DNA of 64,000 nucleotides from a bacterium (GCA_040390065.1 JAZJZE010000017.1:31274-95273); one strand, 5' to 3'; shown: positions 643 through 60,021, counted from the first letter of the stretch. The notes: a model not told the origin generated them from the sequence alone. Made by a program: numbers and translations.

Positions 643-690
643 GCGTCGGCGCCCGTTGGTATCGGTTGCATCGGTGGCGTCGGTTGACTC
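643..690. repeat. Tandem 9-bp units, half copy of the dispersed 9-mer element (copy A1)
   Basis: The array reads cgttggtat cggttgcat cggtggcgt cggttgact. The same CATCNGTTG-type unit recurs at 7.5, 12.4, 15.5, 23.3, 52.2, 53.6, 57.8 and 60.0 kb. Confidence 0.6.
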
Positions 691-862
691 GGGGGGTTGG
701 CCCCGGCGGCCCCCGCCGCTCGCTTCGCATCGCGGCTTGCCACGCCCTCGCCTCGCCGCGGCTTCGCCGGCGGCGTGCTCGCCCCGACCGGGGCCTTCCG
801 CGTGTCCTTGCATCTCTTTCATCTTGAGGGGCTCGTGGTGGACGTCGCCGACGTCGGAGGAT
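691..862. repeat. GC-rich structured spacer module (copy B1)
   Basis: By eye it aligns with 7526-7706. Shared blocks are ccccggcggccc, cgccgcggcttcgcc, gcggcttgcca, ctcgccccg-ccgggg and ctcgtggtggacg..cgtcggagga. The ends ggccccgg / ccggggcc are complementary. Confidence 0.5.
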
Positions 863-939
863 GACTGCCCTGTCGTTGGCCTTTGGCAAGCAGGTTTGCG
901 CCATCCGTGCAATCCGAGGTTTCCTCTTGGACGCGCCCC

Positions 940-947
940 GATAAGCC
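940..947 (+). promoter_or_regulatory. TATA-like box upstream of fabI
   Basis: gataagcc is an AT-rich island in GC-rich spacer, about 32 nt upstream of the ATG at 976. Confidence 0.35.
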
Positions 948-975
948 TTCAACCCCCGGCCACCTGCCTTCGGTG

Positions 976-1881
976 ATGACGGATACCAGCCTCGCCGGCA
1001 AGCGCGCCCTCGTCTTCGGCGTCGCGTCGGAGGACTCGATTGCTTGGGCCATCGCGCAGGAACTCGCCGCGCACGGCGCCAAAGTCACGATGGGCTACCA
1101 GAAGCGCTTCCTGTCGCGCATCATGGGCCTCTTCAAGGACAAGCCGTGGATCGAGGGGCAATTCGAGTGTGATGCGGCCATCGAGGAGTCCGTCGCGAAG
1201 TTCTTCACCGAAGCGAAGGGTCCGTTCGACATGATGGTGCACTGCATCGCCTTCGCCCCGGCCACGGCGTTGCAGGATGAAGTCGTGAAGACGACGGAGG
1301 CGGACTGGAACGTCGCCCTCGGCGTCTCGGCGTACTCGCTCATCCGCCTGACGCGCCACGCCATGCCGCACATGAACCAGGGCGGCGCCATCATCAGCCT
1401 CACGTACCTCGGCGCCGACCGCTTCGTACCGGGCTACCGCGTCATGTCCGCCGCAAAGGCTGCGCTGCAGGAACTCACCCGCGAACTCTCGTTTACCTGC
1501 GGCCGAGAGAAGCAAGTGCGTGTGAACGCCATCAGCGCCGGTCCGATCCGGACCCTCGCCGCGTCCGGTGTCCCGGGTTTCAGCATGATCCTCGACTGGA
1601 TGCGGCACGCAGCGCCATTGGGCAGGAACGTGTCGCAGCAGGACGTCGCCAAGTCCGCGTACTTCCTCCTCAGCGACCTCGCATCCGGAGTCACGGGCCA
1701 GATCCTCTACGTCGACGCCGGCTACAGCATCATGGGCGTCCCTCCGGATCTTGACAAGATGACGCTGCCAGGCCAAAGCGCACCTGGAGGCGGCGCGCAG
1801 ACGGCCGCCGCGCCCCCGCCGGCGCCCGCGGCGCCTGCGCCCCCGAGGGCACAGCCGCTCATCTTCGGGAAGAAGCCGTAG
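976..1881 (+). CDS. fabI: Enoyl-[acyl-carrier-protein] reductase (NADH), FabI-type SDR, with Pro/Ala-rich C-terminal tail
   Basis: LAGKRALVFGVASEDSIAWAIA Rossmann start, YRVMSAAKAAL (Y-x6-K), NAISAGPIRTLAASG and ILYVDAGYSIMG. The start is taken at the internal ATG at 976 (MTDTSLAGK). The tail reads ...AAAPPPAPAAPAPPRAQPLIFGKKP. Confidence 0.85.
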   Translation: MTDTSLAGKRALVFGVASEDSIAWAIAQELAAHGAKVTMGYQKRFLSRIMGLFKDKPWIEGQFECDAAIEESVAKFFTEAKGPFDMMVHCIAFAPATALQDEVVKTTEADWNVALGVSAYSLIRLTRHAMPHMNQGGAIISLTYLGADRFVPGYRVMSAAKAALQELTRELSFTCGREKQVRVNAISAGPIRTLAASGVPGFSMILDWMRHAAPLGRNVSQQDVAKSAYFLLSDLASGVTGQILYVDAGYSIMGVPPDLDKMTLPGQSAPGGGAQTAAAPPPAPAAPAPPRAQPLIFGKKP

Positions 1882-1882
1882 C

Positions 1883-2707
1883 ATGTCCCAGGACCGGCCG
1901 GAACTCGCCGGCGCCGCGCCGCGAAGGCACCTGTCATTGGCCATGCGCTGCTTTGTCGTGGCTTCGCTTGCTTTCATTGCCCTCGGCGCCGCGCAACTGG
2001 CGGACCGGTTGGATCCGCTGGACCGCGCCATCGACGGCCTCGTGCATGACGGCCTTCGACATGACGTTGGGTACGAGGCGACCTGCCAGTCGAGCTTCAA
2101 CGCCAACCACACGCTTGAGCGGCCAGCCACGTATTGCCAATACTCGAGGTCGACGAACACGGCGCACGGTTCCTTCTCCTGCCCGGCCCAGACGCCGCGA
2201 AACGGCACCTGGACGCAGACGTGCTTCGTCGAGGAATCGCGGTTGCCGTGGGCCGGCGTGCCGTCCGACTTGGGAGCATCCGGCGCCGCCCTCACCCTCA
2301 CCATCGCGACGTTCCTCCTGCTCGCCATGCGCAGGGCGTGGCCGTCCGCCCTTGTCGTCCTCGGGGTCGCAGTCATCGGCGCGTATCTCGTCGCGCCGCT
2401 CAAGGCCTTCTTCCCCGGCTCCTTCCCGAGCGGCCACACCGTCGGCGGAACGCTCGGTTGGGGCCTGTTCCTGGTCTTCGCGGCGAGGTCGTGGCGGCCC
2501 GGCCCGTGGACTGGCATGGCGCCGCGCGTCGCCCTGGTTGCCTGGGCATTCATCGCATTCGCCGTCGGCTTCGACCGCGTCCACATCGGCGCCCACCCCG
2601 CAAGCGACGTGCTGGCTGGTTGGGCCTTCGGGGCGGCGCTCGTCTTCCTGGCCGTCCTCATCGATGACACCTTGCGCGAACGCACCGCCAGGAACCCCGC
2701 GCCATGA
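1883..2707 (+). CDS. PAP2-family membrane phosphatase (paralog 1)
   Basis: PSGHTVGG and DRVHIGAHPASDVLAGW (PAP2 C2/C3 motifs) with multiple hydrophobic segments. The ATG lies 1 nt after the fabI stop. Confidence 0.8.
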   Translation: MSQDRPELAGAAPRRHLSLAMRCFVVASLAFIALGAAQLADRLDPLDRAIDGLVHDGLRHDVGYEATCQSSFNANHTLERPATYCQYSRSTNTAHGSFSCPAQTPRNGTWTQTCFVEESRLPWAGVPSDLGASGAALTLTIATFLLLAMRRAWPSALVVLGVAVIGAYLVAPLKAFFPGSFPSGHTVGGTLGWGLFLVFAARSWRPGPWTGMAPRVALVAWAFIAFAVGFDRVHIGAHPASDVLAGWAFGAALVFLAVLIDDTLRERTARNPAP

Positions 2708-3417: not shown

Positions 3418-3443
3418 AAGGCGTCCCCGGCACTGCCTAGGCT

Positions 3444-4724: not shown

Positions 4725-5002
4725 AACACGCAGCGTGCGATGGGTTCGCCGTTCTGGATGTCGACGCCGTAGCGGCAGTTCGTGATGCCGACGCCATACG
4801 CGACGTAGACCGAATCCGTGCCGGCGTGGACCGCGACGCCCATGCCGCCCGCCACGAAGACGGTGACGTGGCCGTTCACGCCGCCGGAGCCAGCGGTTGC
4901 GCCTTGGTCGACGCACGGGTCGCGGTCGCAGACTTGCGGTTTGGCGGTCGCGGCGGGCAAGAGGGTCAGGGCAAGCAGGGTGGCAACGAGGATGGCTTTC
5001 AT
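4721..5002 (-). CDS. Small secreted Cys-containing protein (93 aa), hypothetical
   Basis: Signal peptide MKAILVATLLALTLLPAATA, mature part with 4 Cys ending ARCVF. A TTTTATTC box lies about 50 nt upstream. Confidence 0.5.
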   Translation of the reverse strand: MKAILVATLLALTLLPAATAKPQVCDRDPCVDQGATAGSGGVNGHVTVFVAGGMGVAVHAGTDSVYVAYGVGITNCRYGVDIQNGEPIARCVF

Positions 5003-5159
5003 GCGGTTCACGTGCCGGGAGTCCGGCGCGCCGCGATTCTGCCTGGCGAATAAAACCCGGGGCCGGTGGGTCGCATCTGCCGAAACAGAAGGGTCGCGGC
5101 ATTGGGCCGCGGCCCAACGATTTGCCAACACTGAAGGGCTTCCTGCCCGCTGCCCGGGC

Positions 5160-7489: not shown

Positions 7490-7525
7490 CAGTGTGCTCA
7501 GTGGATTCAGTGGTTAGGTCGGTGG
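7490..7525. repeat. Degenerate 9-mer array (copy A2)
   Basis: cagtgtgct cagtggatt cagtggtta ggtcggtgg, immediately followed by module B2. The layout matches 643-862. Confidence 0.45.
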
Positions 7526-7706
7526 GTGCGCCCCGGCGGCCCTCGCCGCGGCTTCGCCTCGCGGCTTGCCAAACCCTCGCTCTGCGCGCTTCGCGGCGCA
7601 TTCGCTCGCCCCGGCCGGGGCGTTGCGGGTGGTCCTTTCCGAATCGGATATGGAGGGCCTCGTGGTGGACGGCGGCGTCGGAGGACGGGGGCCCTCGTGG
7701 TGGTCT
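7526..7706. repeat. GC-rich structured spacer module (copy B2)
   Basis: Shares the blocks of 691-862. The terminal ctcgtggtgg motif is duplicated (7657-7670 and 7693-7706). Confidence 0.5.
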
Positions 7707-7723
7707 TGTTTCGAGGCGTGTTG

Positions 7724-11334: not shown

Positions 11335-11337
11335 TCA

Positions 11338-11829
11338 TTGGTGGGCCGACTGGAATCAGAGGGGTTCCAGGAGGCAATCAGGCCCGACGTATCCAGCACA
11401 CTCAAGCGGGTGCGGGGATGGAGTGGGGGCGTGGCATCGGCGCGCGGCCGCATCACGGACGTGGAGGACTACATCGCGGGCCACAAGCCCGTCGTCCAGG
11501 AGCGCCTGCGGGAGTTGCGCGCGCTCGTGCGTGCCGGCGCGCCGCACCTGCAGGAATCGATGCGCCGCGACGTACCGACGTACCACGCCGAGGGCGTCGA
11601 CCGCATGTGGCTGCGCGGCTACGCGGACCACGCGACGCTTGGCTTCTTCGCCGGGGCGTCGCTTGCCGACGAAGCGCGGCTCCTGGAGGGATGGGGCCGC
11701 GAGCGGCATGTCAAGTTGTTTGCCCGCACGGCCCTGGACCGCGACGCCGTGCAGGGCCTCGTCAAGGCGTCGGCCGCGCCACGATCCGCTCACGTCCACC
11801 CAAGTAGGGTCGCAGCGGCTCCGGGATGA
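11338..11829 (+). CDS. DUF1801 (YdhG-like) domain protein
   Basis: VEDYIAGHKPVVQERLRELRALVRAGAPHLQESM...PTY pattern. The true start is probably the GTG at 11410 or 11431. The 3' end overlaps serS by 68 nt. Confidence 0.55.
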   Translation: MVGRLESEGFQEAIRPDVSSTLKRVRGWSGGVASARGRITDVEDYIAGHKPVVQERLRELRALVRAGAPHLQESMRRDVPTYHAEGVDRMWLRGYADHATLGFFAGASLADEARLLEGWGRERHVKLFARTALDRDAVQGLVKASAAPRSAHVHPSRVAAAPG

Positions 11830-13183
11830 GGACTGAGCCGTCGGCCTGCTGGAAGTTCTCCAGGATTGCAACCAATGTGCGCTGCACCGCGATGGCCGTG
11901 GAGTTGAGCGTGTGGACGACTTCCGTCGGGTCGCCCGGGTTCTTGCGGCTGCGCGTGTTGTAGCGCCGTGCCTGGAAGTCCGTGCAGTTCGAGCAGCTGA
12001 CGACTTCGCGGTACGCGCCCTGCGCCGGCATCCACGCCTCGATGTCGTACTTCTTCGCCGCGATGGAGCCGAGGTCGCCGGTGCAGATGTTCACGACGCG
12101 GTACGGAATCTTCAGTTTCTGGTACAGCGATTCCGCGTTGGCGATGAGCTCATCATGGATGCGCCATGAGTCCTCGGGCTTGCAATACACGAACATCTCG
12201 ACCTTGCTGAACTGGTGGACGCGGAAGATGCCCTTCGAGTCCTTGCCGTGCGCGCCAGCCTCCTTGCGGAAGCAGGGTGACACGCCCGCGTAGCGGAGAG
12301 GGAGTTTGGCGTCCTCGAGGATCTCGCCCATGTGCATTGCAGCGATGGGGTGCTCGGACGTGGCGATGAGGTACAGGTCCGGTTCTCGGGCCCGCCCGAA
12401 CTTGTCAACAGATGGAACAGATGCAGCAGATGAAGCGGACGGGCTGCCCGCAATCTGTTTGTTCTGTTTCATCTGTTGACCGTCCGTCGGCGGCCCCGAG
12501 GCCACTTCAACACCACCCGCCTCGACCTTGTAGATCACGGACTCGAAGTCCGCCAAATCGATTGCCCCCTCCAGGGCCTCGCGGCGAAGCAGGTACGGCG
12601 GCTCGATGGGCAGGAAGCCCTTCTTCGACAACTCCGTGAGCGCGAAGAACTCCAAGGCCCGACCAAGCATCACCAGGTCGCCCTTGAGGTAGAAAAAGCG
12701 GCTGCCGGCGGCGCGGGCGGCGCGTTCCAGGTCCGCAAGGTCGAGGGATTCCAGGAGGTCGACGTGCGACTTCGCCGGGAACGCATGCGTCGGCTTGCCG
12801 CCCCAGGCGCGAATCTCCACGTTCTCGGAATCGTCCCTGCCGACGGGGACCGAGGGATGCATGAGATTCGGGATGGTGCGAAGCAGACCGTCGCGAGTCT
12901 TCTCCGCTGTCGGCACGTCCGATTCGAGGCGCTTCAGTTCGTCGCCGAGTTGCGCCATCTTCGCAAGAATCTCCTTCGCATCGCCACCCGCCTTCTTCGC
13001 CTCCGCGATGAGCTTGCCCGACTTGTTGCGCTCCGCCCGCAAGGCCTCCATTTTCTGCAGGCCCTCGCGCCAGGCACGGTCATGTTCACGCACGTCGTCC
13101 ACGACGGCGGCGTCGCGACCGCGCTTCTTGAGGTCGGCTCGGACCCGTTCCGGGTCTTCTCGCAGGATGCGGATGTCAAGCAT
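11762..13183 (-). CDS. serS: Serine--tRNA ligase, carrying a 45-aa in-frame insertion
   Basis: MLDIRILREDPERV coiled-coil arm, LYLIATSEHPIAAMH, GVSPCFRKEAGAHGKDSKGIFRVHQFSKVE, and SNCTDFQARR. Confidence 0.92.
   Translation of the reverse strand: MLDIRILREDPERVRADLKKRGRDAAVVDDVREHDRAWREGLQKMEALRAERNKSGKLIAEAKKAGGDAKEILAKMAQLGDELKRLESDVPTAEKTRDGLLRTIPNLMHPSVPVGRDDSENVEIRAWGGKPTHAFPAKSHVDLLESLDLADLERAARAAGSRFFYLKGDLVMLGRALEFFALTELSKKGFLPIEPPYLLRREALEGAIDLADFESVIYKVEAGGVEVASGPPTDGQQMKQNKQIAGSPSASSAASVPSVDKFGRAREPDLYLIATSEHPIAAMHMGEILEDAKLPLRYAGVSPCFRKEAGAHGKDSKGIFRVHQFSKVEMFVYCKPEDSWRIHDELIANAESLYQKLKIPYRVVNICTGDLGSIAAKKYDIEAWMPAQGAYREVVSCSNCTDFQARRYNTRSRKNPGDPTEVVHTLNSTAIAVQRTLVAILENFQQADGSVLIPEPLRPYLGGRERIVARPTP
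12386..12520. repeat. Palindromic 9-mer element (copy A3) inserted in frame in serS
   Basis: The core at 12404-12480 reads gtcaacagatggaacagatgcagcagatgaagc-ggacgggctgcccg-caatctgtttgttctgtttcatctgttgac. The flank cgtccgtcggcggc is shared with the copy at 59.99 kb. 135 nt = 45 codons with no stop. Confidence 0.7.
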
Positions 13184-15490: not shown

Positions 15491-15584
15491 AATCAACCGA
15501 AGCAACAGAAGCAGCCGAACGACGGTCGGTCGGTTGCGTCGGTTGCGTCGGTTGGCAGGCCGGCGTCGTCGGGTCGGTTGATTA
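15491..15584. repeat. Full palindromic 9-mer element (copy A4) between convergent genes
   Basis: The termini aatcaaccga / tcggttgatt flank the arms agcaacagaagcagccgaac and cggttgcgtcggttgcgtcggttgg. The right terminus supplies the stop codon of the 15582..16145 gene. Confidence 0.65.
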
Positions 15585-16145
15585 GCCCAATGGATCGCGC
15601 GGCAGACCGATGCGCCCCGCTGCCAGCGACAGCAGTACGGCCGCCGCAAGCCCAGCCGTCAGAACCGCCAATGCCAGCGGCGTTGCCCGCCCCGCCGCGA
15701 GCCAGCCCGCGGTGCCCACAACGAGCAACACCGCAGCCCACCGCGCCGGCCGGATGGCTGCCTTGACGCGCAGCTCCACGGTCTTCCGTTCGTCGTCGTG
15801 TCGAGCCTCTGCCTTCTTCGCCGCGCGTTCCACGCCTTCAAGCCGCCTCACATCCGCGCGCAGGGCGGCAAGCTCCTGCTTCTCCGCCGCGCTCGTCTCG
15901 ACGCGCTGCTCGGCGTTCTCGGTCCGCCGCCGCACCGTCTCCTTCCGGTCCGCCAACTCCTTGGCTTGCGCCCGCCGGTCCGCTTCCCATTCGGCCTTTT
16001 CCTGTTCCATGCGATCCATGCGGCGGGAGTGCTGCGCCTTGAGGTCGCGCATCTTGAGGTCGAACTCCCGTTCCAAGTCGCGGCGACGCGCAGCCAACTC
16101 GCGGTGTGCCGCCTCCGGCAAGTCCGACTCGTCCTCGTCCCCCAT
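15582..16145 (-). CDS. Coiled-coil protein with C-terminal double TM anchor, hypothetical
   Basis: A charged heptad-like region (RRDLEREFDLKMRDLKAQ...) is followed by WAAVLLVVGTAGWLAAG and LALAVLTAGLAAAVLLSLAAG. The start is taken at MGDEDESD. Confidence 0.5.
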   Translation of the reverse strand: MGDEDESDLPEAAHRELAARRRDLEREFDLKMRDLKAQHSRRMDRMEQEKAEWEADRRAQAKELADRKETVRRRTENAEQRVETSAAEKQELAALRADVRRLEGVERAAKKAEARHDDERKTVELRVKAAIRPARWAAVLLVVGTAGWLAAGRATPLALAVLTAGLAAAVLLSLAAGRIGLPRDPLG

Positions 16146-16266
16146 GCAGCCCAAGGAGCACGACCGGGGGCATAGCCCCATCGCGCGGCCCAGCCTCGGG
16201 AACGGCCATCCGCCGTACAAGGAAGCGGCACAAAGATTACCAGCACGAAGCCCATTCCTGCCCTCG

Positions 16267-18018
16267 ATGCAAAGGTATGGAACGGCGGCGGACGGCCTGC
16301 GGCGCCTCTACGCCGTGGGGGCCTTCCTTCTGCTGGCCATCCTCGTCGTGGCTGCGGCGTCCAACTGGCGCGGCGCCGAAGCGTTTGCCGATGCTTGCGT
16401 CACCGTCATGGCCATCGCCGTGGGTCTTGCCGGCCTTTGGCGGGGCCGAATCCTGGAGAGCCAGCGGCGCCTCGCCTGGAACCTCCTGAGTCTCGGCTGC
16501 CTGGCGTGGGGGCTTGGCAACGCCGTCTGGACCGCTGGCGTCCTCCTCGGCAAGCCTCCGGGGACGGTCAGCCTGGCCGACGCCGGATACTTGCCTCTCG
16601 TCCCGCTTGCCGCCACGGCGCTTCTCACCATGGTCGTCGGCACGACGAACTTGGCATCGCGCCTGCGCATCGCCCTCGATGCCCTGCTGACATCGTGCTC
16701 CGTATTGTTCGTGGCGTACGCGGCGGGCCTTCGTCCCCTCGTCCAACACGTGACCGAGCAGCCCACGACAATCGGACGCGCCGTGGCCTTGGCGTATCCG
16801 GTCGGCGACCTGTTCCTCCTGGCCCTCCTGATCCTCGTCATGCCGCGCGTGCCTGCCGAGGTCCGCCGCACCCTGGCGTGGCTCGGCGTCGCCCTGCTTG
16901 CCGTCCTCGGCTCGCACCTCGGATACCTGGTCTTCGGCGCGGAGGCGGCAAGCCGGGCCGTGCTGTGGTCGGACGCCAGCCGGCTCCTCGGCTTCGTCAT
17001 CGTCGGCTACGCCGCCATCCGGCCCATCGAGGCCGCGCAGCCGCTGACACCGACCAAGCCCGGGCCCGTCGGGGCGCTCCTGCCACTTGCACCGTTTGCC
17101 ATCTGCATGGTCGTGGCCATCCAGTTGGAACTGCGCGACGGCATCCTGGAGCCGTTCCTGTTCTGGAGCGCCATCATCGTCGTGTTGTCGCTGGCCGCCC
17201 GGCAGTCGTTCATGCTGAACGAGAACTACGTGCTGCGGCAACAGGCGGACCACGCCTTGGACCTCCTGAGGCTGCAGGAGCGGCAGCGCACGCAGATGCT
17301 CAACAACATCACGCACGACATGCGGCACCACCTCTCGCCGGCCGTCATGCACCTCGCCATGATCGATGCATGGTCCGACCCCGTCTCCGAGCGACAGAAG
17401 CGCAGCCTCGGCATCGTGCGCCGCAGCACGGACCAAGTGACGCGCCTTGCCTCCGACCTGAGCGACGCCGCCAGCCTGGAAGCCGGCCGCTTCGCCGTCC
17501 AACTGGCGCCCACGGACCTGGCCCGCGTCGTCCGCGACGCGACGGAGTCACTGCAAGGCATGGCCCTGGAACGCTCCGTTGCGCTGGACGTCGACGCGGC
17601 CGCCGAGGTTCCCGTGGCCGGTGACCACGACCGCCTCGTCCAAGTCGTCTTCAACCTAGTCTCGAACGCCATCCGGTTCACGCCTGCCGGGAAGCGGGTG
17701 CAGGTGCGGGCCTTGCGCGACGGCGGCCGCGCCCGCGTCATGGTACGTGACGAGGGCCGTGGCCTCGAGGCGCAAGAGATGGCGCGCTTGTTCTCGGCGT
17801 TCACCCAGGTACACGCCAAAGCTGGGCGTAAGGAACCCGGCATGGGACTCGGCCTGTTCATCAGCCGCGGCATCGTCGAGCAGCACCAGGGCACGATCGG
17901 TGTGACCTCCGATGGGCTGGGGCTCGGCTCCACGTTCCAGTTCGAGATGCCTGCCGCGCCGTCGCCCGAACGGCCGACGACGGATTCCGCCGTCGCACGC
18001 TTGTCCCAAAAAGTTTGA
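16267..18018 (+). CDS. Sensor histidine kinase with polytopic membrane N-terminal domain (no cognate response regulator nearby)
   Basis: H-box NITHDMRHHLSP, N-box FNLVSNAIRFTP, DEGRGL, and GMGLGLFISRGIVEQHQGTI. About 8 hydrophobic spans lie upstream. Confidence 0.85.
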   Translation: MQRYGTAADGLRRLYAVGAFLLLAILVVAAASNWRGAEAFADACVTVMAIAVGLAGLWRGRILESQRRLAWNLLSLGCLAWGLGNAVWTAGVLLGKPPGTVSLADAGYLPLVPLAATALLTMVVGTTNLASRLRIALDALLTSCSVLFVAYAAGLRPLVQHVTEQPTTIGRAVALAYPVGDLFLLALLILVMPRVPAEVRRTLAWLGVALLAVLGSHLGYLVFGAEAASRAVLWSDASRLLGFVIVGYAAIRPIEAAQPLTPTKPGPVGALLPLAPFAICMVVAIQLELRDGILEPFLFWSAIIVVLSLAARQSFMLNENYVLRQQADHALDLLRLQERQRTQMLNNITHDMRHHLSPAVMHLAMIDAWSDPVSERQKRSLGIVRRSTDQVTRLASDLSDAASLEAGRFAVQLAPTDLARVVRDATESLQGMALERSVALDVDAAAEVPVAGDHDRLVQVVFNLVSNAIRFTPAGKRVQVRALRDGGRARVMVRDEGRGLEAQEMARLFSAFTQVHAKAGRKEPGMGLGLFISRGIVEQHQGTIGVTSDGLGLGSTFQFEMPAAPSPERPTTDSAVARLSQKV

Positions 18019-23312: not shown

Positions 23313-23362
23313 TACCGGTTGGTCGTGCCGCGTCATCTGTTGCATCGGTTGCATCTGTTGAC
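23313..23362. repeat. 9-mer array, half copy (A5)
   Basis: catctgttg catcggttg catctgttg ac, followed by ccgtcgtggtgg. Confidence 0.6.
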
Positions 23363-31709: not shown

Positions 31710-33794
31710 TCAGGCCCGTCGTCGGCGCTGGAGGAGAAGGGCCGCAAGAAGACCGGTCATCAGGAAGGCTGGCCCGGGCGCCGGCGTGCGGTTGCCGTTG
31801 GCCGCATCCGTAGATTCGCCGCGGGCGATGGGGGCGGCCGGGGGCAGCGCTCCGACTGCCGCGGGGGTCCAAGCGATGGCGCTGGTTTGTGGCGTCAACG
31901 TTCCCAGCTGGGCCCCGGTCTCGCCCGAGAAGACGTACCACGTGGCGTTGAACGAATCGTATGTCAGGGTCGCGCTGAAACCATTGCCACCGCCAAGACT
32001 CGCCGTGGACCGATGGATTCCTTCTTCCAGTTTCACGCCGAAATCCGCCCGCCCATCCCCGTCCACGTCCCCCAGGGAAACTGCCTTCGCCCGGAGCCCG
32101 CCGCGTTGCGCGGCCAGACCGTCGGGGGCGCGAAGCGCCTGGTGGAAGATTTCGCGCCCATCGTCGCCCGCCCGGATGGTGAAGCCGACGCTGGCGCCCG
32201 CGAAGTCGTCCTGCGTGTGGTTGGTCGCGTCCACCCACACGAGGTCCCTGCTGCCTGGCCGGGTGACATCCTGCACCCAGATGGAGGCCAGGGCAGCCGC
32301 GTCCTGCGTCGCCCACATGACGCCGCCCGTGCGGCCATCCCTCGCCTCGACCACCCGTCCGCCGGCGGGCGACGGCGTCATGGATGAAAGGTCAGGGAAA
32401 CCGTCGCCGTTCAGGTCGGACACGACCGGGTTGCGCAGCGGCCCCTCGCGCCCCAGGTTGAACGGCTCCAGCCCATTTGGCCACGGCGCCGCCCACCTGG
32501 GCGACACGTCCAATCCGACGGCGCTCGCCGTCGCGGCAAGGGTCCCATTCAAGGGCGAATCGATGCGCAGGCTTTCGGCGCGACCATCGCCGTCCACGTC
32601 GCCCAGCGGCAGGAGGATGGACGTGGCGTCGGTGAGGACCTCGTGCTGTAGCAGCTTGCCGTCCCGTCCGGACAGGATGTAGACATCGGAGTCGACGCGC
32701 CCGGCCCGGGTCGCGTTGCTGTGCAGGACGTCGAAGGCCACGTCTTGCCAACCGTCGCCGTCCATGTCGGAGCCAACGGTGACGCGGCCGTCGACGAATA
32801 GGGCTGGGGGCGCGGCAAAGGACCACGCGGCGCCCAGGCCGTCCAGCGAGAGCACCGTGAGTGAAGGCGTGGCAAGGACAGGTGCGCCCGGCGCGTCGAC
32901 CGTCGCCTTGGCCGTGCGGGCGTACTCGGCCAGCAACAAGAACCCCGACCCGTGCGGGAACAAGTCGGCCAAAGCCCAGTCCGCCTGGTCAAGGTCCGGT
33001 TCGTCGCGGATGAGTTGGCTCGTCGCCGACCCGTGGATGTCCAGGATCCGGTAGGTGTAATCGGCGTCGCCACGGCCGACCAGGACGCCCGCCTTCGCCG
33101 CATAGACGCCATCGTGGTGGGACACCACGGCGCTGCCGAAGATGCGGCCACCCCCGATGGGCAGGTTGGCCGAGTATCCGACCTTCGACGTGCCGGCCTG
33201 CGCCTCCTTCTGGGCCGGGCACAGGACGACCGCCGTCTGGTTCCACGCACCGGACGCCTCCGCCTGGCCCAGGAGCCGCCCGTCGGCCCCCGACCGCCAC
33301 GCCGATGGAAAGGTTCCGCCGAGGTTGATATGGCTCGCCTCCGCCAGTCCGCATGACGCGTACGTGTAGGATGATCCACCAATCGTTCCCGTGCCAGAGG
33401 AGAAATCCGCCAAACCGTCCCCGGTGATGTCCGGAAGGGGGTTCTGCCAAAGGGTTAGGCCGCCGGTGGTCCACAGGCGGGCGCCAAGGTCGCGACCCGA
33501 ACGGGCCTCGGTCTCGTCGGCCAGGATGTGCCCGTCGCCGAACGGGGCGAGCCGTCGCGAGGCGGCGAGGTCCCCGCGCCCATCATGGTCGATGTCGCCG
33601 ATGGCCCAGAGGTTGAGGTCGAGGGCATCAGGGTAGGCCGCCACGACGGGCGCGGACGCCCGTTGCGGCTCCCCCATTTGCGCCGACGCCGATGCGACGA
33701 CCAGCAAGACCGCCGCCAGGCTACCAAGGGCACCAACCACGGCCGGAACGCGGCATGAATGCAGATAAGGTGATGGGTGACTGGCCTTGACCAC
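31710..33794 (-). CDS. FG-GAP/VCBS-repeat beta-propeller surface protein with C-terminal sorting-like signal
   Basis: Repeated Dx(D/N)GDGxxD loops (GDIDHDGRGDL, DITGDGLADF, SDMDGDGWQDV, GDVDGDGRAE, SDLNGDGFPDL, GDVDGDGRADF). The C-terminus reads APGPAFLMTGLLAALLLQRRRRA. Confidence 0.85.
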   Translation of the reverse strand: MVKASHPSPYLHSCRVPAVVGALGSLAAVLLVVASASAQMGEPQRASAPVVAAYPDALDLNLWAIGDIDHDGRGDLAASRRLAPFGDGHILADETEARSGRDLGARLWTTGGLTLWQNPLPDITGDGLADFSSGTGTIGGSSYTYASCGLAEASHINLGGTFPSAWRSGADGRLLGQAEASGAWNQTAVVLCPAQKEAQAGTSKVGYSANLPIGGGRIFGSAVVSHHDGVYAAKAGVLVGRGDADYTYRILDIHGSATSQLIRDEPDLDQADWALADLFPHGSGFLLLAEYARTAKATVDAPGAPVLATPSLTVLSLDGLGAAWSFAAPPALFVDGRVTVGSDMDGDGWQDVAFDVLHSNATRAGRVDSDVYILSGRDGKLLQHEVLTDATSILLPLGDVDGDGRAESLRIDSPLNGTLAATASAVGLDVSPRWAAPWPNGLEPFNLGREGPLRNPVVSDLNGDGFPDLSSMTPSPAGGRVVEARDGRTGGVMWATQDAAALASIWVQDVTRPGSRDLVWVDATNHTQDDFAGASVGFTIRAGDDGREIFHQALRAPDGLAAQRGGLRAKAVSLGDVDGDGRADFGVKLEEGIHRSTASLGGGNGFSATLTYDSFNATWYVFSGETGAQLGTLTPQTSAIAWTPAAVGALPPAAPIARGESTDAANGNRTPAPGPAFLMTGLLAALLLQRRRRA

Positions 33795-49658: not shown

Positions 49659-50093
49659 ATGGACAAGCCTATTGTAGAGGCTCAGACTGAAGCCGTAACC
49701 ATGAGTCAGACGGTGTCGCAGACTACCCAGACGACGGCGCCTGGGACGGTCACGTTCCAGCAGACCCTTTCCATGACGGTCACGGACCTCGCCCGCGTCA
49801 AGCTGCAGGAATTCCTGGGCTCGCGCAGCATGGAGTCCGTCGGTGTCCGCATCTCCGTCCAGGCGGGCGGCTGCTCCGGCGCCTCGTACGGCATGGAGTT
49901 CGCGGAGAAGGCCGAGCCGGGCGAACTCAAGCTCAACTCCAACGGCGTCACGCTGTACCTGCAACCCGAGCACGCGCCGCTTCTCAACGGCGTGCAGATT
50001 GATTATGTGGACGAGTTGATGGGCGGTGGCTTCAAGATCGCGAACCCCAACGCCAAGTCCAGCTGCGGATGCGGCAAGTCGTTCTCGGCCTAG
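49659..50093 (+). CDS. iscA: Iron-sulfur cluster insertion protein (IscA/ErpA/HesB family)
   Basis: GVRISVQAGGCSGASYGMEF and NPNAKSSCGCGKSF. It has an N-terminal ~40-aa Thr/Gln-rich extension, and the start may be later. Confidence 0.85.
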   Translation: MDKPIVEAQTEAVTMSQTVSQTTQTTAPGTVTFQQTLSMTVTDLARVKLQEFLGSRSMESVGVRISVQAGGCSGASYGMEFAEKAEPGELKLNSNGVTLYLQPEHAPLLNGVQIDYVDELMGGGFKIANPNAKSSCGCGKSFSA

Positions 50094-50860
50094 GCGCTTT
50101 GTGGAGTTTCTCTGAGGGGTCCAAAAACGCACCCCGTCCGCAGCGAGCCACCGAGACCAAACGATACGGGGGCGTGAGCGGGGAGGGTGAAGATGAAGTC
50201 AAAATCAGTTCCGTTGGCCCGGCCACCGCGCGGATGGTACAGGGTGCCAAAGGGCGTGTCAATGGTGTCGTAGAATTGGAAGGCGTAGTTGTGGCCGGCG
50301 TGGGCCACCTTGAAGGCAGGCCACGCGGTCTCGCCGAATAGCTCCCACGAGGTATGGAGTTCGAACGTGGCCTCGTTCGCTGGTCGAAGGACTTGCAGAT
50401 CTGCACCTCCAAAGAACTGGAGAAATACTCTTGCACCGGTCGAGGCCGGGGTTCCCTCCAACTCGACGAAGCCCGTTCCGCGTGTATCGTCGAATCGCGC
50501 AAAGCTATCGTGCGTCGTACCGGTCAAGACAAGAAGGCCCGAGCGCGGCGCCGGCAGTGCGAGGCCGGCGTATCCCAGGCCATATCGACCCGTCCGTGGG
50601 TCCATAAAGAGGGAATAGTGGACGCCTTCGGCCTTGCCGTCGCTCACACAAATCCAGAGGTCGTCCGGGGTTGACGCCTCCAAGGGCGCGGCCACGGCGT
50701 GATCTAGGCAATCGCGGGGTGCGCCACCTGGAAACGCCAAGGGACAGCCGTCGTGGTCCGCCAGGGACGGTCCGGCTCGATCGCTTATGGGGTCGTTTCC
50801 ACAGCCGGCCAGGGCGCACGCCAGCATTACGAAGGCGATTAGGCAGTCGAGGCTTGCCAT
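50090..50860 (-). CDS. Lipoprotein, hypothetical (in low-GC island)
   Basis: Lipobox ALAGC, with a GAGGA Shine-Dalgarno-like motif 5 nt upstream of the ATG. Confidence 0.6.
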   Translation of the reverse strand: MASLDCLIAFVMLACALAGCGNDPISDRAGPSLADHDGCPLAFPGGAPRDCLDHAVAAPLEASTPDDLWICVSDGKAEGVHYSLFMDPRTGRYGLGYAGLALPAPRSGLLVLTGTTHDSFARFDDTRGTGFVELEGTPASTGARVFLQFFGGADLQVLRPANEATFELHTSWELFGETAWPAFKVAHAGHNYAFQFYDTIDTPFGTLYHPRGGRANGTDFDFIFTLPAHAPVSFGLGGSLRTGCVFGPLRETPQSA

Positions 50861-50905
50861 TGATTCCTCAGATGGAAAAGGGAGAAAAGGGTTCGCTGGG
50901 CGTCC

Positions 50906-51838
50906 CTAGAGGGTTCCGGTTGTCCCGGTTCCGCGCATTAGGCTTTCGGAATCGAATTCCACGCCGTCACTGCATCCAACCGTGGCGCCAAATCGCTCGG
51001 TGACGTGAGCCCCCGAATCGAGCATTGTAACCTGGAGCCCGATTTCCAGTTCCCACGATATGGACCAACTACAGGATGATGCGCCCGACATTCCCCAAGC
51101 GCCTGCATCCACAATGTAGTCCATGGGATCCGTGTCCGCCGCTGCCCAGTGACCCAAGTAGGCACAAGTCACGAGGGAGTTATCGGATGTCCAAACAAAA
51201 TTCTCTGCGCCGGGGGCCTGGTCGATTTCCAATCCAAATGTCCATCCGTCGGCACCGTTGTTGAGGTTGTTAGTCGTCAAGCTGTATGACAAGTACATCG
51301 ACCCTTCCTGTTGGTCCTGATAGAGTTGGAACCAACTGCCTCCATTCCCCTGGATGACGTCCGTAATTGGTAAGGCCAGCTTTGCCCCGTCGCGGCAGAC
51401 GTCAAGCGGACCCACGGCAGGAAGGGAAGGCAGTGCCGCGCAAGATTTGATTGACTTGCTATTCGAAATCCAATTTCCTGATGCGTCCTTCTCGAACAGC
51501 TCCGCGGAGCTCATGCACGACGACCAAGCCCCGCATAGGGGGGCTGCGGCGGCAGATACACCTTTCACGAGGATGGTGTCGGTGCGGGTAACTGATCCGG
51601 TCAAGCCGGACGCCACGTACGCGACCTTCATCTCCACGCGGCTGTCCGAGGCAAAGGACGTGGCATGCCAGCGGAAGCCCGTTGTTCCGAGTGGGCAGTC
51701 TTGGGCGGCATCCATGGCAACGGAGCCGGCGGGGGTGAGCGCGGCCGCCGGGCCAGCCACAAGAACAGCGGGTGTTGCGACCATCAGAATGCATAGGACG
51801 GCGTACGGTGCCGTGGTAATTGTCGTACGAAGGCTCAT
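50906..51838 (-). CDS. Secreted/anchored protein, hypothetical (about 50% G+C by spot count, compositionally foreign)
   Basis: N-terminal hydrophobic anchor and a Ser/Thr/Asn/Trp-rich sequence unlike the rest of the window. A ggtaaatacc box lies about 26 nt upstream. Confidence 0.6.
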   Translation of the reverse strand: MSLRTTITTAPYAVLCILMVATPAVLVAGPAAALTPAGSVAMDAAQDCPLGTTGFRWHATSFASDSRVEMKVAYVASGLTGSVTRTDTILVKGVSAAAAPLCGAWSSCMSSAELFEKDASGNWISNSKSIKSCAALPSLPAVGPLDVCRDGAKLALPITDVIQGNGGSWFQLYQDQQEGSMYLSYSLTTNNLNNGADGWTFGLEIDQAPGAENFVWTSDNSLVTCAYLGHWAAADTDPMDYIVDAGAWGMSGASSCSWSISWELEIGLQVTMLDSGAHVTERFGATVGCSDGVEFDSESLMRGTGTTGTL

Positions 51839-51927
51839 GGTTCACCAAAAATCGTGCCGGTATTTACCCGGCATTTGAGGGCAGAGGCGCCTGAATATCT
51901 AACCGTTTCTGCCGGGTGAAAACGGGC

Positions 51928-52107
51928 ATGGGTCGTCCCCGGATGCCTGCCAATCGCCGCCGGAAAAAGGTCACAATCACGCCCGATCCGCGTGTCGTGG
52001 CCTTCGTCGACGAGCGCATCGGCCTCGGCAAGCCGTACAAGAACCGGACGCATGCCTTTGAGCAGGCGGTCGCCTGCCTCATGTCGAACGATGCGAAGAA
52101 ATCCTGA
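51928..52107 (+). CDS. Small ribbon-helix-helix-like protein (CopG-like), hypothetical
   Basis: A basic N-terminus is followed by KKVTITPDPRVVAFVDERI...RTHAFEQAVACLM (beta-alpha-alpha pattern). A gaatatc box lies about 32 nt upstream. A GTG at 51916 is also possible. Confidence 0.45.
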   Translation: MGRPRMPANRRRKKVTITPDPRVVAFVDERIGLGKPYKNRTHAFEQAVACLMSNDAKKS

Positions 52108-52161
52108 AGGAGGAAATGCTCCCCGACGATTGGACGTCTCGATGCGGCCCCGACGGCGGGG

Positions 52162-52192
52162 CAACAGATGCAACAGATGCAACCGATAGCGA
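52162..52192. repeat. 9-mer array, half copy in reverse orientation (A6)
   Basis: caacagatg caacagatg caaccgata. At 52262-52292 it is followed by caagtgattgaccggtttgcagg, a diverged copy of the C-module terminus. Confidence 0.55.
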
Positions 52193-52339
52193 CGGCCGTG
52201 CAAGCGGTGTGGGCGGCAACCGCGCGCCGTTCCGTTGGGTCGAGCCGCGCGAAGGTCCACGCGCAAGTGATTGACCGGTTTGCAGGCCACCGAATCCCAA
52301 ACGTGGATTCAAATCCCGTCAGACCCACGGCCCTGGTCC

Positions 52340-52959: not shown

Positions 52960-53607
52960 ATGGACCTCCGCGAAATCAAGGGCATCGGCCCCGCCAAGCA
53001 ACAGAAACTGCGCGACGCCGGCATCGCCTCCGTCGAAGACCTCGCCCGCGCCGACCCCACGAAGCTGGCCGCCGCCTCCGAGATCCCGCTCGCCCAAGTG
53101 CGCGAGATGCGCGCCCGCGCCGCCGCCCTCACCGTCGTGCAGGACGCGAAGGCATTGGGCACGGCGTCCGTCCCCACCATGGCAAGCGAAGCCGTGAAGG
53201 GCCTCCAGCAGGCCATCTCGGTCACCGTCGACCGCCTCGCCGAGGAGTTGGCGCAAGTGCAGAAGTCGCTCGCCAACCTGCAGAAGCAAGCCGCCGACGC
53301 GGCAGCCGAACTCACGGCCGAGGCCAAGACTCCGGCGGGCCGCAAGCGCATCGCCGTCGCCAGCCGCGAACTGGCACAGGACTACGCCGGCCGCGCCCAG
53401 GACGCAGCCCAGAAGGCCATCGCCTACGTGCAGGCCAACGCGCCCGACGCCATCGCCGCCGCCCGCGTGCAACTCGAAGACGCCGCCATCAAGCTCGCGG
53501 CACTCGCAGAGAAGACGCAGACGACTCTCAAGACCGAGGCCGCCAAGGTCAAGGCCGCCAACGAGAAGCTGTTCAAGTCGGTGAAGAACGGCGTCAAGGC
53601 GGCGTAG
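52960..53607 (+). CDS. Helix-hairpin-helix domain protein with long Ala/Lys/Gln-rich helical C-terminal region
   Basis: LREIKGIGPAKQQKLRDAGIASVEDLARADPTKLA. The start is the ATG at 52960 or 52936. Confidence 0.65.
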   Translation: MDLREIKGIGPAKQQKLRDAGIASVEDLARADPTKLAAASEIPLAQVREMRARAAALTVVQDAKALGTASVPTMASEAVKGLQQAISVTVDRLAEELAQVQKSLANLQKQAADAAAELTAEAKTPAGRKRIAVASRELAQDYAGRAQDAAQKAIAYVQANAPDAIAAARVQLEDAAIKLAALAEKTQTTLKTEAAKVKAANEKLFKSVKNGVKAA

Positions 53608-53628: not shown

Positions 53629-53662
53629 GTCAACAGATGCAACAGATGCAACCGATGACCGA
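53629..53662. repeat. 9-mer array, reverse orientation (A7)
   Basis: gt caacagatg caacagatg caaccgatg accgac. A degenerate partner arm (..gatcggttag) may lie at about 53730. Confidence 0.6.
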
Positions 53663-53747
53663 CGTGCGCGAAACGCATGCCGGGTACTTCCGTTGCGTCG
53701 GATGACCCGGCGTCGGGGAGCCGCCGACTTGATCGGTTAGCACCGGC

Positions 53748-56499: not shown

Positions 56500-56561
56500 G
56501 GGTGCACCTGGCAACCAATGATGCACTGCGCGCCAAGGACGTTGTCGTCCCGGCAAGGTTC

Positions 56562-57710: not shown

Positions 57711-57764
57711 GATGCCGCCAGCGGGAGCGCGTTGAAAGAGGTGCCGCGCGCGGCTCCCCCCACT

Positions 57765-57836
57765 GTCAACCGATGGAACCGATGAAACAGATGGACAGCC
57801 GCGTCGGCATCGGTTCGATCTGTTGCATCTGTTGAT
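57765..57836. repeat. Full palindromic 9-mer element (A8)
   Basis: gtcaaccgatggaaccgatgaaacagatggac-agccgc-gtcggcatcggttcgatctgttgcatctgttgat. Confidence 0.7.
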
Positions 57837-57857
57837 AAACGTGGATGGTGGATGGGA

Positions 57858-59666
57858 TTACGCCTTCTCCATCCATCCCAACTGCAACGCATTCCGAAGC
57901 GTCACGGATTCCTTGACCTGCGACTCGCTGAACTGCGCCTCGTCGCCGACGACGTACTTCGTCTTCGTGGCCCAATCCGTGAAGCGTTTCTTGACGACGT
58001 AGCGTTCCTTGGCGACTCCGGCGGCGCCGCGTTTGTGCAGGTGGCGCGTCTCGGTGAAGCTGCCGGGGTACGTCGTGATCTTGCCGCCGTCAAGGACGGC
58101 GGTCTTGTCCGTGACGGAGTCGAGCAGGAATCGGTCGTGGCTGACGACCAGGAGCGTTCCGTGGTACGCGTTCAAGGCGTGGATGACGACGTCGCGGGCC
58201 CACAAGTCCAGGTGGTTCGTCGGCTCGTCGAGGATGAGGAGGTTCGACGGCTTGAGGATGCACTTGAGGAGCATCATGCGTTGCCTCTCGCCGCCGGAGA
58301 GGCTGCCGACGCGGCGGTTGATGTCGGCATCCGGGTTGAAGCGGAAGCGGCCCAGCAGGGCCTTCACGTCGCGTTCGTCCAGGTTTGGCCGCGCGTCCAG
58401 GACTTCCTCGAGGAGTGTCCGCTTGACGTCGAGGTCGTCGTGCTCCTGGCTGAAGAACATCGCCCGGGCACCGGGGGCGACGCGCATCTCGCCGGCGTCC
58501 TTGCCGAGCCGACCGGCCAGAATCTTGAGGAGCGTCGACTTGCCTTGCCCGTTGCCGCCGACGAGGCCGACGCGTTCCTTCTTCGTGACCTCCAGGTCGG
58601 CGCCTTTCAGCACCTTGTCCGCGCCGTAGGACTTCTCGATGCCCGTGAGACGCAGCACCTCGAGCCCCGACTTCTCGAGGGCATCGAACTGCAAGCCGAA
58701 TCCCAGCTTCTCGAGCACGGGGTCTGGCGTCCGGTCGAGTGCCTCTTGGTACTTGGCGAGGGCCTTCATGCGACTCGCGTACTGGCCGTCGAAGCGCTTC
58801 TGCTGCCGGAACTGCAGGATGACGTCCTTCGCCTGCTGCATGCGTTCCTGCGCCTTCTCGTGCTCGCGGCGGGCGCGCTCCAGGTCCTCGTCGCGGGCCT
58901 TGACGTAATCCTCGTAGTTGCCGGAATAGCACCGGATGCGGCCCTGGCTCACTTCGAAGACGCGGCTTGCGACGTTGTCGAGGAAGGCGCGGTCGTGCGC
59001 CACGACGAGGACGGTCCCGTTGAACGAGTCCAGCCACTCTTCGAGCCATTCGATGGAGTCGACGTCCAAGTGGTTCGTCGGCTCGTCGAGCACCACCATG
59101 TCGCCGGGCCGAGCGGCGCTCAGCGTCCGCGCCAGAAACAGTCGCGTCTTCTCTCCACCAGAGAGGCTCTGCGCCGGCTGGTCGAGGTCGTCGTCGGAGA
59201 AGCCCATCTGCGCGACGATGGGCGTCTGCCACGCGTCCGTCGCCGGCTTCGTCGCCATGCGCATCTCCTGCTGCAACTCGGCGTAGCGCTCCAGCACCGC
59301 CTCGTAGCCGTGGTTCTCGTACAACGCGGGATCCGAGATGCGCGCCTCCAACTCGTCGTGCTCGGCCTGCAAATGCGCTGGCGCCGATGCAGCAGCCGAG
59401 AGCAAATCCTTCACGGTCGCCCCGGGAGGAATCACGGGATGCTGGTCGAACCAGTGGATTGTCGTCCCCGGCTGCACCTTCAGCGAGCCATGGTCCGGCT
59501 TCTCGCGGCCGGCGAGGATGCGAAGGAGCGTCGACTTGCCAGCACCGTTGGGGCCGACGATGGCGACCTTCTGCCCGGCCTCGACGACGAACGTCGCATC
59601 GTCGAAGAGGTGCTTCGGGCCATACGACTTGCCCAGCCCATCGGCCTGGATGAGCGGGGGAGGCAT
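57858..59666 (-). CDS. ABC-F family ATPase (two fused NBDs, no membrane domain) with ~60-aa C-terminal extension
   Basis: GPNGAGKSTLL / LSGGEKTRL / VVLDEPTNHLD, then GGNGQGKSTLL / LSGGERQRM / LILDEPTNHLD. A charged inter-domain linker follows YSGNYEDYVKARDE. Confidence 0.9.
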   Translation of the reverse strand: MPPPLIQADGLGKSYGPKHLFDDATFVVEAGQKVAIVGPNGAGKSTLLRILAGREKPDHGSLKVQPGTTIHWFDQHPVIPPGATVKDLLSAAASAPAHLQAEHDELEARISDPALYENHGYEAVLERYAELQQEMRMATKPATDAWQTPIVAQMGFSDDDLDQPAQSLSGGEKTRLFLARTLSAARPGDMVVLDEPTNHLDVDSIEWLEEWLDSFNGTVLVVAHDRAFLDNVASRVFEVSQGRIRCYSGNYEDYVKARDEDLERARREHEKAQERMQQAKDVILQFRQQKRFDGQYASRMKALAKYQEALDRTPDPVLEKLGFGLQFDALEKSGLEVLRLTGIEKSYGADKVLKGADLEVTKKERVGLVGGNGQGKSTLLKILAGRLGKDAGEMRVAPGARAMFFSQEHDDLDVKRTLLEEVLDARPNLDERDVKALLGRFRFNPDADINRRVGSLSGGERQRMMLLKCILKPSNLLILDEPTNHLDLWARDVVIHALNAYHGTLLVVSHDRFLLDSVTDKTAVLDGGKITTYPGSFTETRHLHKRGAAGVAKERYVVKKRFTDWATKTKYVVGDEAQFSESQVKESVTLRNALQLGWMEKA

Positions 59667-59712
59667 GATTGCGGCGACGGGATAGAGGTGTTGAGCGTTG
59701 CGGAAAGGGGAC

Positions 59713-59885
59713 GACCTGCAAACAGGTCGATCATTTGCGATGTCCTGCCTCGGCTTCGCCTCGCCACATCGCGGCGGAGGGCTGCCGCCCCCCGCCCCTG
59801 TCCCCCCGCCGGGGGGCCTGCCGGCCCCCGCGACCCCCCGCGGGCTCGCGCAGCGGCGCTCGCAAGTGACGCTCGCCCGGGCGGT
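59713..59885 (+). repeat. Three-hairpin GC-rich module, copy C1 (left arm of inverted pair)
   Basis: gacctg-caaa-caggtc, gcgatgt-N22-acatcgc, ggcgg-N7-ccgcc. The core 59713-59837 is the reverse complement of 62186-62310 with 2 mismatches in 125 nt (hand alignment). Confidence 0.8.
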
Positions 59886-59904
59886 TCCGCTGGTCCTCCG
59901 CTTT

Positions 59905-60021
59905 CATCTTCTGTCCGTCCTCGGTTGCATCGGGGCATCTGCGGATGGGCGGTCGGCCCTGTTCATCGGTTGCATCCGTTGCATCTGTTGACCGGTCGTC
60001 GGCGGCGTTGGCATCCGTCGA
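59905..60021. repeat. 9-mer array (A9)
   Basis: catcggttg catccgttg catctgttg ac cggtcgtcggcggc, with degenerate units on both sides. Confidence 0.65.

Follow-up and report, generated by a model that had tools for sequence, protein, structure and literature searches.

A family of probable mobile repeats with arms of three nonamers, one copy of which lies in frame within the seryl-tRNA synthetase gene of an uncultured Thermoplasmatota archaeon

We analyzed a stretch of 64,000 nt of genomic DNA (GCA_040390065.1, contig JAZJZE010000017.1, positions 31274-95273; hereafter the window, with coordinates counted from its first letter), in which nine loci carrying tandem 9-bp units had been predicted from the sequence alone. 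These loci, here called E1 to E9 (Table 1), represent a multicopy family of short repeats with sharp termini, present in excess over chance and extending beyond the window; the copy E3, located within the seryl-tRNA synthetase gene (serS), arose there by insertion. The family is real and apparently undescribed; its general kind is known, and the design of its arms is unusual. [quoted passage not shown] The gene map of the window was built from codon statistics and checked with Pfam and NCBIfam. The GC content of the window is 66-71%, and the best matches of SerRS, ABC-F and other proteins are found in metagenome-assembled genomes of "Thermoplasmata/Thermoplasmatota archaeon"; the host is an uncultured high-GC archaeon of the Thermoplasmatota.

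We quantified the excess of the nonamer in several ways. The unit CATCNGTTG has 16 exact matches in the window against 2.0 expected, a count reached in none of 100 shuffles, and the doubled unit with up to three mismatches has 21 matches against 0.56 expected. Phased runs of at least two units, with at most two mismatches each, delineate 10 arms, compared with 0-1 in 30 Markov simulations, and Tandem Repeats Finder, run independently, returned period-9 arrays at all nine loci. The high density noted in the original prediction is thus a true excess over chance. All nine loci exist as predicted, with one correction: E2, previously regarded as a degenerate copy, is not a degenerate CATCNGTTG array but a triple array of another nonamer, TCAGTGGWT. 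Similarity between loci is limited to a 29-nt arm, (caTCKGTTg)x3+AC, with a sharp outer end, GTTGAC, identical at unrelated loci. The logo of 33 units reads c-a-T-C-K-G-T-T-g, with positions 3, 4 and 6 invariant (33/33) and position 5 occupied about equally by G or T; the unit therefore consists of eight conserved bases and one free base. Although three to five tandem nonamers per copy had been described, we found three in nearly every arm. Identity between arms ranges from 62 to 97%, with a median of 79%. Variants are commonly shared by the units of one arm: those of E4 all have CTTC or CGTC (CTTCKGTTG and CGTCGGTTG), those of E2 all have TCAGTGG, and the same is seen in a third genome introduced below.

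The family comes in two forms, hairpins of 72-93 bp (E3, E4, E8 and, weakly, E7) and single arms (E1, E5, E6, E9), the latter being direct triple repeats with no self-folding. The copies at 12.4, 15.5 and 57.8 kb, predicted to be imperfect palindromes, are indeed strong hairpins: E3, E4 and E8 have inverted arms of 27-29 nt with termini GTCAAC...GTTGAC, which constitute terminal inverted repeats, and their folding energies are -47, -50 and -33 kcal/mol (z = -5.3, -3.2 and -2.8). Within the hairpins, mismatches repeatedly fall at position 5 of the unit, the free one. All other copies had been interpreted as single arms, which holds for E1, E5, E6 and E9 but not for E7, whose consensus arm is accompanied by a weak partner.

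The copy in serS provides the strongest argument for present or past mobility of the family. As predicted, E3 lies within this gene, and we find that it does so in frame: together with one extra G it forms a 78-nt insert of 26 codons, encoding GQQMKQNKQIAGSPSASSAASVPSVD (residues 235-260, G235-D260; peptide QQMKQNKQIAGSPSASSAASVPSVDK). The loop of SerRS between YKVE and LYLIATSEHP spans 49 residues here versus 4-29 among 112 homologs; none of 111 homologs has the insert, and in Pyrococcus horikoshii SerRS (2DQ0) the loop is absent at this point. Taking the nearest loop (P0003, locus L117) as reference, a 78-nt block, GGTCAAC...GTTGAC, was inserted between the ancestral GAC and AAG. All catalytic motifs of the protein are intact, and its invariant catalytic residues are kept. 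In an AlphaFold model built with 112 sequences (predicted local distance difference test, pLDDT, 88; predicted template modeling score, pTM, 0.86), which replaced a first run with 15 sequences that was too poor (pLDDT 55), the one long stretch of low confidence covers residues 236-253, within the insert; as modeled, the element-encoded segment would be a floppy excursion from a variable loop. An independent Logan assembly of the sequencing run gave an identical SerRS protein and no contig without the insert. Since a complete element with canonical ends lies within an intact essential gene, we conclude that it was inserted there and tolerated. We also considered E3 as a bulge-helix-bulge intron and rejected this, because it is a plain hairpin without the corresponding geometry and its 78 nt keep the frame anyway.

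Copies also occur outside the window, to which the family might have been confined. The window sequence is present in one public run (SRR26324623, a watershed metagenome) at a depth of ~12-13x. Over the E5 arm, depth increases from 13 to ~150 (run contigs aligned to single elements), and the Logan contigs of the window genome terminate at arms, as expected for a dispersed repeat. We detected arms on at least eight further contigs (8451, 9748, 17885, 18280, 13631, 4474, 8144 and 6585 nt), whose depth of 10-15x is like that of the window genome. Wherever loose-end flanks were reported for these contigs, they are sequences not found in the window. Several of the extra copies are full palindromes, with inner arm sequence visible in the loose ends. 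Separately, runs X1-X3 contain short contigs of 2-3x depth matching the window at 12308-12345, 12512-12600 and 53565-53599 with 5-13 mismatches over 35-89 nt, which indicates that the same watershed samples contain a second population, related but rarer.

We next compared the 11.7-61.4 kb part of the window with 34.3 kb of a related genome (GCA_964627625.1, contig CAZVJB010000002.1, positions 1-34299), which has 81% nucleotide identity in serS and 73-95% identity among orthologous proteins. The sites orthologous to E3, E4, E5 and E8 are empty in this relative; at ~81% identity, such differences in presence and absence are not strain-level events. The relative has its own copies. A hidden Markov model trained on the window arms alone identified an arm, TACCGGTTA CATCGGTTC CATCCGTTG AC (E = 2.7e-5), ~110 nt upstream of ABC-F, and a diverged 9/18-nt array, CACAGATGG CCCGGATGC CACAGATTG AACGGATGC CACAGATTG, occupies the position orthologous to E9, just upstream of a near-identical Nop56 promoter. 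A third genome (L116; JGI Ga0167628_1009450, positions 21-150), with an ABC-F protein 89% identical, carries (CATCNGTTY)x2, (TCAGTGGGT)x3 and (TGCGYTCGG)x3 upstream of this gene, the second of these arrays being a recurrence of the E2 unit. Since arrays or arms with differing units are found in all three genomes, the family and its subfamilies are older than the split between them. Triple nonamer arrays, each with its own unit, are apparently general in the spacers of this lineage. In the ABC-F/Nop56 spacer of the relative (L115:1021-1775), inverted arrays of the CCACAGATTG and AATCTGTGG types also bracket a segment of ~620 nt that contains a GC-rich module and an open reading frame (ORF) of 57 codons (1313-1487, minus strand).

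Gene order is heavily shuffled between the window and the relative, with six collinear blocks changed in both order and orientation. Elements are found at 4 of 10 breakpoint spacers (E4, E5, E7 and E8) versus 1 of 18 conserved adjacencies (one-sided Fisher test, p = 0.041). The single Fer4|PFK junction of the relative corresponds in the window to two junctions, Fer4-E4 and E8-PFK, the pattern that recombination between dispersed copies would give.

These comparisons bear on whether the arrays ever moved. They could instead be immobile, palindromic microsatellites produced by replication slippage, template switching and gene conversion between GC-rich spacers, and similar to each other by homogenization. 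Consistent with this are the variants common to the units of one arm, the different unit sequences in the ABC-F/Nop56 spacers of the three genomes, and the lack of both target-site duplication and transposase. Nevertheless, slippage cannot create E3, complete and with canonical termini, in a coding loop whose homologs have no related sequence. Moreover, the number of units is fixed at three, unlike that of a variable microsatellite, unrelated loci share the outer boundary GTTGAC, and the variant unit TCAGTGGNT occurs in two different genomes, as expected for subfamilies. We regard an origin in situ as very improbable.

A second question is whether the positions of the elements reveal a role at the RNA level. 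Six of the nine loci start 22-53 nt behind a stop codon. E1 begins 53 nt past the pheS stop (607), its outer side joined to a GC-rich module, and E2 lies 50 nt past the stop of a PF01877 gene. E6 starts 53 nt past the stop of ORF 51943-52107(+) and adjoins a low-GC island. E7 starts 22 nt past the stop of an HHH-domain gene, upstream of a PALP gene and at a synteny break, and E8, also at a synteny break, follows the ABC-F stop by 22 nt and precedes the PFK start by ~55 nt. E4 lies between the stop of Fer4_ETF_QO (15454) and a convergent ORF, 15582-16145(-), whose TAA overlaps the element terminus. The GC content by codon position supports a real gene in this place, plausibly encoding a coiled-coil protein with C-terminal membrane helices. 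A histidine kinase start at 15610 was rejected, because the plus-strand extension it implies (15610-18018) is probably spurious (GC by codon position.53/.74/.82, junk translation); a start nearer ~16267 is more likely. The minus-strand gene restores the description of the E4 site as a convergent spacer in which the element supplies a stop codon, as originally proposed. With such positions, the 27-29 bp hairpins could stabilize mRNAs against 3'-5' decay or help to define 3' ends, like the repetitive extragenic palindromes (REPs) and interspersed mosaic elements (BIMEs) of bacteria. The location of six loci shortly after stop codons fits this idea, as do the place of E4 between convergent genes, the high stability of the full copies (-33 to -50 kcal/mol, z -2.8 to -5.3) and the invariant G.U pairs on the sense strand of the module that follows E1 and E2. 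However, the single arms E1, E5, E6 and E9 are unable to form a hairpin, and promoter-side E5 and E9 and coding E3 fit poorly with a bidirectional terminator. Archaeal termination depends on oligo-T tracts, and none follows the elements. Their absence from the orthologous 3' ends of the relative also argues against a needed function. In Rfam 15, no family matches the window in overlap with the elements, either at the gathering threshold or at E<=5, and two tRNAs alone pass gathering. Overall, we consider an RNA function of this sort improbable as the explanation of the family.

The promoter-side copies suggest another alternative. E5 ends 31 nt upstream of a TATA-like box, TTTTCTAT, belonging to an Mrp/NUBPL gene (start 23423), at a synteny break after the ThiF gene; E9, in the spacer between the divergent genes ABC-F and Nop56, precedes the TTTAAA box of Nop56 by 56 nt. 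The nonamer arrays could thus be cis-regulatory or architectural sites of the host, where a protein binds three abutting units cooperatively; on this view the palindromes would represent operators in pairs, and the scatter of the copies would mirror a regulon or a chromosome-organizing system. Eight constrained positions around one free central base, three units in nearly all arms and the distances of E5 and E9 to TATA-like boxes all agree with binding sites. So do the 9/18-nt array kept upstream of the Nop56 TATA box of the relative, though the spacer around it has diverged, and the presence of nonamer arrays upstream of ABC-F in all three genomes examined. In addition, the concentration of hairpin mismatches at the free position suggests that the 8-base sequence matters more than pairing. 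Against this, one copy lies in a coding loop and six begin 22-53 nt behind stop codons and not at promoters, the distance to the TATA box varies (31, 56 and ~20 nt) with no fixed geometry, and the orthologous spacers of the relative lack the sites. The units also differ within the lineage (TCAGTGGNT, TGCGYTCGG, CCACAGATTG), so that a single protein would not read them all. Finally, no candidate for the binding protein emerged: the 57-aa ORF of the relative, considered as a ribbon-helix-helix binder of the arrays or as cargo, was dropped, as it has no Pfam match and no homolog in the window. Binding sites of the host are, in our judgment, an unlikely explanation of the whole family.

Returning to mobile repeats, several observations count against the interpretation that we favor. 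No target-site duplication was found at E3, E4, E7 or E8, apart from a possible GAC at E3 alone, and no flanking direct repeat of 2 nt or more at E4, E7 or E8. In the window, searches with Pfam and NCBIfam found no transposase, integrase, REP-associated tyrosine transposase (RAYT) or insertion sequence (IS), and the 34 kb of the relative likewise gave no transposase, RAYT or IS. With arm identities of 62-97% (median 79%), there is no sign of a recent burst, and the arm-specific variants could be equally explained by homogenization in situ or by subfamilies. That two genomes have retained an array upstream of the Nop56 TATA box hints at a role in the host. The association with breakpoints is weak and relies on small numbers. 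Searches with exact patterns in GTDB representatives (triple unit) and in JGI metagenomes and IMG/VR (double unit plus GAC) found no further carrier and none in Thermoplasmatota; the matches were unrelated 9-bp repeats in bacteria (for the GTDB triple unit, mostly cyanobacteria, and others) and in phage-like contigs. The distribution is thus known from two or three genomes alone. Strict patterns miss diverged arms, the arm of the relative being the example, and these scans therefore say little about the true distribution.

The comparison with known systems places the family among non-autonomous repeats. The closest described archaeal class, by description, is the SMR type of Haloquadratum walsbyi: SMR-A is also archaeal, ~100 bp long and without coding capacity for a transposase, has inverted terminal repeats unrelated to known transposons and makes no target duplication, and the mode of mobilization of SMRs is enigmatic (PMC3119063). 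The host phylum differs, and SMR-A copies are usually >95% identical and target IS605/PATE, in contrast to arms 62-97% identical and mostly located behind stops; a nonamer substructure is not reported for SMRs. Prokaryotic MITEs share with our elements small size, below ~500 bp, non-coding nature, multiple copies, terminal inverted repeats, mostly intergenic location, insertion polymorphism between related genomes and an association with rearrangements (PMC10969869, PMC3184786). Unlike MITEs, the elements have no target-site duplication, no parent IS with matching ends was found, and almost the whole element is an inverted repeat with a short loop. Archaeal MITEs are relatively little known, and the archaeal examples in a review do not include Thermoplasmatota (PMC10969869). 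Rickettsia palindromic elements (RPEs) are likewise short palindromic interspersed repeats found in frame within functional genes, where they add a peptide without loss of the protein (PMC10969869). They differ in having no sequence relation to the family, in being ~100-150 bp long versus 72-93 bp here, and in host, which here is archaeal; only here are the arms made of tandem nonamers, and one of nine copies is coding, whereas many RPEs are. REPs and BIMEs are extragenic palindromes that occur singly or as inverted pairs, frequently a short way downstream of genes, and have proposed roles as stabilizers or terminators, and the REP itself is a hairpin of 20-40 bp with a GTAG or CGTC head (PMC3733652). 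Our arms are instead direct triple repeats ending in GTCAAC, and no RAYT was seen in the window; as the arms are not palindromes and lack a GTAG or CGTC head, they are not REPs. The suggestion of MITE- or REP-like mobile hairpins is supported in its first part by the multiple copies, the sharp terminus, the presence/absence pattern and the coding insertion, and the REP part is abandoned. In architecture, the elements recall the Foldback and Galileo transposons of Drosophila, with inverted arms of tandem short subrepeats and copies at inversion breakpoints resulting from ectopic recombination (PMC3573991, PMC4168063). The analogy is one of architecture alone, since those are eukaryotic, of kilobase scale and with a known P-superfamily transposase. 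The STRR (short tandemly repeated repetitive) sequences of cyanobacteria are likewise built of short tandem units, 7 nt long rather than 9 nt, and are dispersed within one lineage over many intergenic loci; unlike the present family, they form longer arrays of variable copy number and have no inverted pairs with a fixed three units.

A mechanism for mobile repeats of this kind can be outlined. A trans-acting recombinase or transposase would read the iterated nonamers and spread the copies, with a possible parallel in other transposons and their multiple subterminal transposase-binding sites. Insertions would survive chiefly where they may do little harm, in spacers at 20-55 nt from the preceding stop codon, and a stop-free body with a length that is a multiple of three could let an occasional coding insertion persist, as in the RPEs of Rickettsia. 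Ectopic recombination between dispersed copies may contribute to the rearrangements relative to the related genome, and the single arms may be decayed or recombined half-elements. A further-reaching version, which we consider possible though on balance doubtful, is that the elements form an undescribed class of archaeal foldback-type mobile elements, in which three units per arm serve as a platform for a dedicated recombinase or host protein, and the stop-free, codon-periodic (9 = 3x3) design is an adaptation for colonizing coding loops and promoters. E3, E4, E7 and E8 have 2-4 of 6 frames open; we rejected the open frames by themselves as a sign of design, because chance leaves about half of all 26-codon frames open at 68% GC.

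Other candidate explanations were discarded. The window shows no depletion of the HincII-type sites GTCAAC/GTTGAC (21 and 15 versus ~17 and 15 expected), which disfavors restriction sites. Origin recognition boxes were dismissed, as we found no AT-rich unwinding region and no orc1/cdc6 among the scanned proteins, and the nine loci are scattered. There is neither a box C/D pattern nor an Rfam match at the elements to indicate C/D-box sRNAs. A CRISPR array does not fit either: the nonamers abut or the arms form inverted pairs, the loci are scattered, there is no regular array of direct repeats, and Rfam has no CRISPR match at the elements.

Table 1. Coordinates of the repeat loci, their host gene and associated repeats (window positions unless a locus is named)
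Feature	Position	Strand	Description
E1	660..688	+	Single arm TATCGGTTG CATCGGTGG CGTCGGTTG AC; nhmmer E=8e-7 (arm within training set)
GC-rich structured module after E1	690..884	+	
E2	7490..7525	+	Triple array of other 9-mer: CAGTGTGCT CAGTGGATT CAGTGGTTA GGTCGGTGG
Second GC-rich module copy, after E2	7525..7714	+	
serS	11762..13183	-	Seryl-tRNA synthetase, 473 aa, intact; hosts E3
E3	12404..12480	.	Full palindrome, 77 nt; arms 12404-12432 and 12452-12480
E4	15491..15583	.	Full palindrome, 93 nt; termini AATCAACCGA...TCGGTTGATT
E5	23334..23362	+	Single arm CATCTGTTG CATCGGTTG CATCTGTTG AC
E6	52160..52188	-	Single arm, outer end GGCAAC
E7	53629..53708	.	Consensus left arm 53629-53657; degenerate right arm CTTCCGTTG CGTCGGATG AC, 53685-53706
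E8	57765..57836	.	Full palindrome, 72 nt (GTCAAC...GTTGAT)
E9	59905..60021	+	Consensus arm 59964-59992, degenerate 9-mers on flanks
C module	59712..59864	-	153-nt GC-rich hairpin block ending in 24-nt motif GCAAATGATCGACCTGTTTGCAGG; inverted copy (95%) 62159-62311
GC-rich module, all copies	690-884; 7525-7714; L003:2599-2798; L115:1091-1280		L115 copy in reverse complement
24-nt motif copies	52263-52286; 59715-59738; 62285-62308; 62366-62389	+; -; +; +	

Other repeats are found next to the elements. A GC-rich module of ~190 nt comes straight after a nonamer array at E1 and E2 and, in the relative, at L003:2575-2798 and L115:1091-1310 (reverse), so that both genomes carry it. A long helix is predicted for the module, along with a conserved GCCCCGACCGGGGC hairpin; the G.U pairs of the helix are invariant on one strand (sense at E1 and E2), which hints at a structure at the RNA level, and with four copies and little covariation this is a lead only. 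The module has no Rfam match and could be either a structured RNA or a second MITE-like repeat. A 24-nt motif, GCAARTGATYGACCKGTTTGCAGG, with the hairpin GACCTG-TTTG-CAGGTC, occurs four times against 0 expected. Every copy precedes, by ~50-190 nt, a start codon of its own strand (ORF 52340, ABC-F, epimerase), and the motif may be a shared operator or another repeat. The original prediction had joined the nonamer array to the C module in a composite element; the 24-nt motif is indeed found 100-250 nt inward of E6 and E9, but this is a loose arrangement, and the array with its ~190-nt module is the firmer composite. The two copies of the C module (59712-59864 and 62159-62311, 95% identical) make a 153-nt inverted repeat that flanks the Nop56-fibrillarin operon, with 2294 nt between its arms; one side is tandemly duplicated (81-bp repeat at 62232-62392). 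This repeat could mark an invertible or recently converted segment. The low-GC island next to E6 (50100-52100; 60% versus 68%) lies exactly at a synteny break after an Fe-S biosynthesis gene, and neither Pfam nor NCBIfam has a matching family for its ORFs 50090-50860(-) and 50906-51838(-); the island may be acquired DNA. Lastly, at 33633-33669(-), by the start of an FG-GAP repeat gene, we noted a single sub-threshold Rfam match to CRISPR-DR29 (29.8 bits versus gathering 39, E = 0.024), probably due to chance.

The family offers a 29-nt signature, codon-periodic arms of three nonamers and a suggestive link to rearrangements. Its in-frame insertion in an essential aminoacyl-tRNA synthetase is a behavior like that of RPEs, described in the literature consulted mainly for Rickettsia. 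In practical terms, the repeats fragment short-read assemblies of this lineage, as contigs break at arms, and they inflate ORF calls, and the fixed site of three nonamers would be a simple handle for finding the cognate protein, if one exists. Should the elements prove to be a foldback-type class of their own, they would seed genome inversions in this lineage as well as new peptide segments, of which the SerRS insert is an example, and new regulatory arrays such as those upstream of Nop56 and ABC-F.

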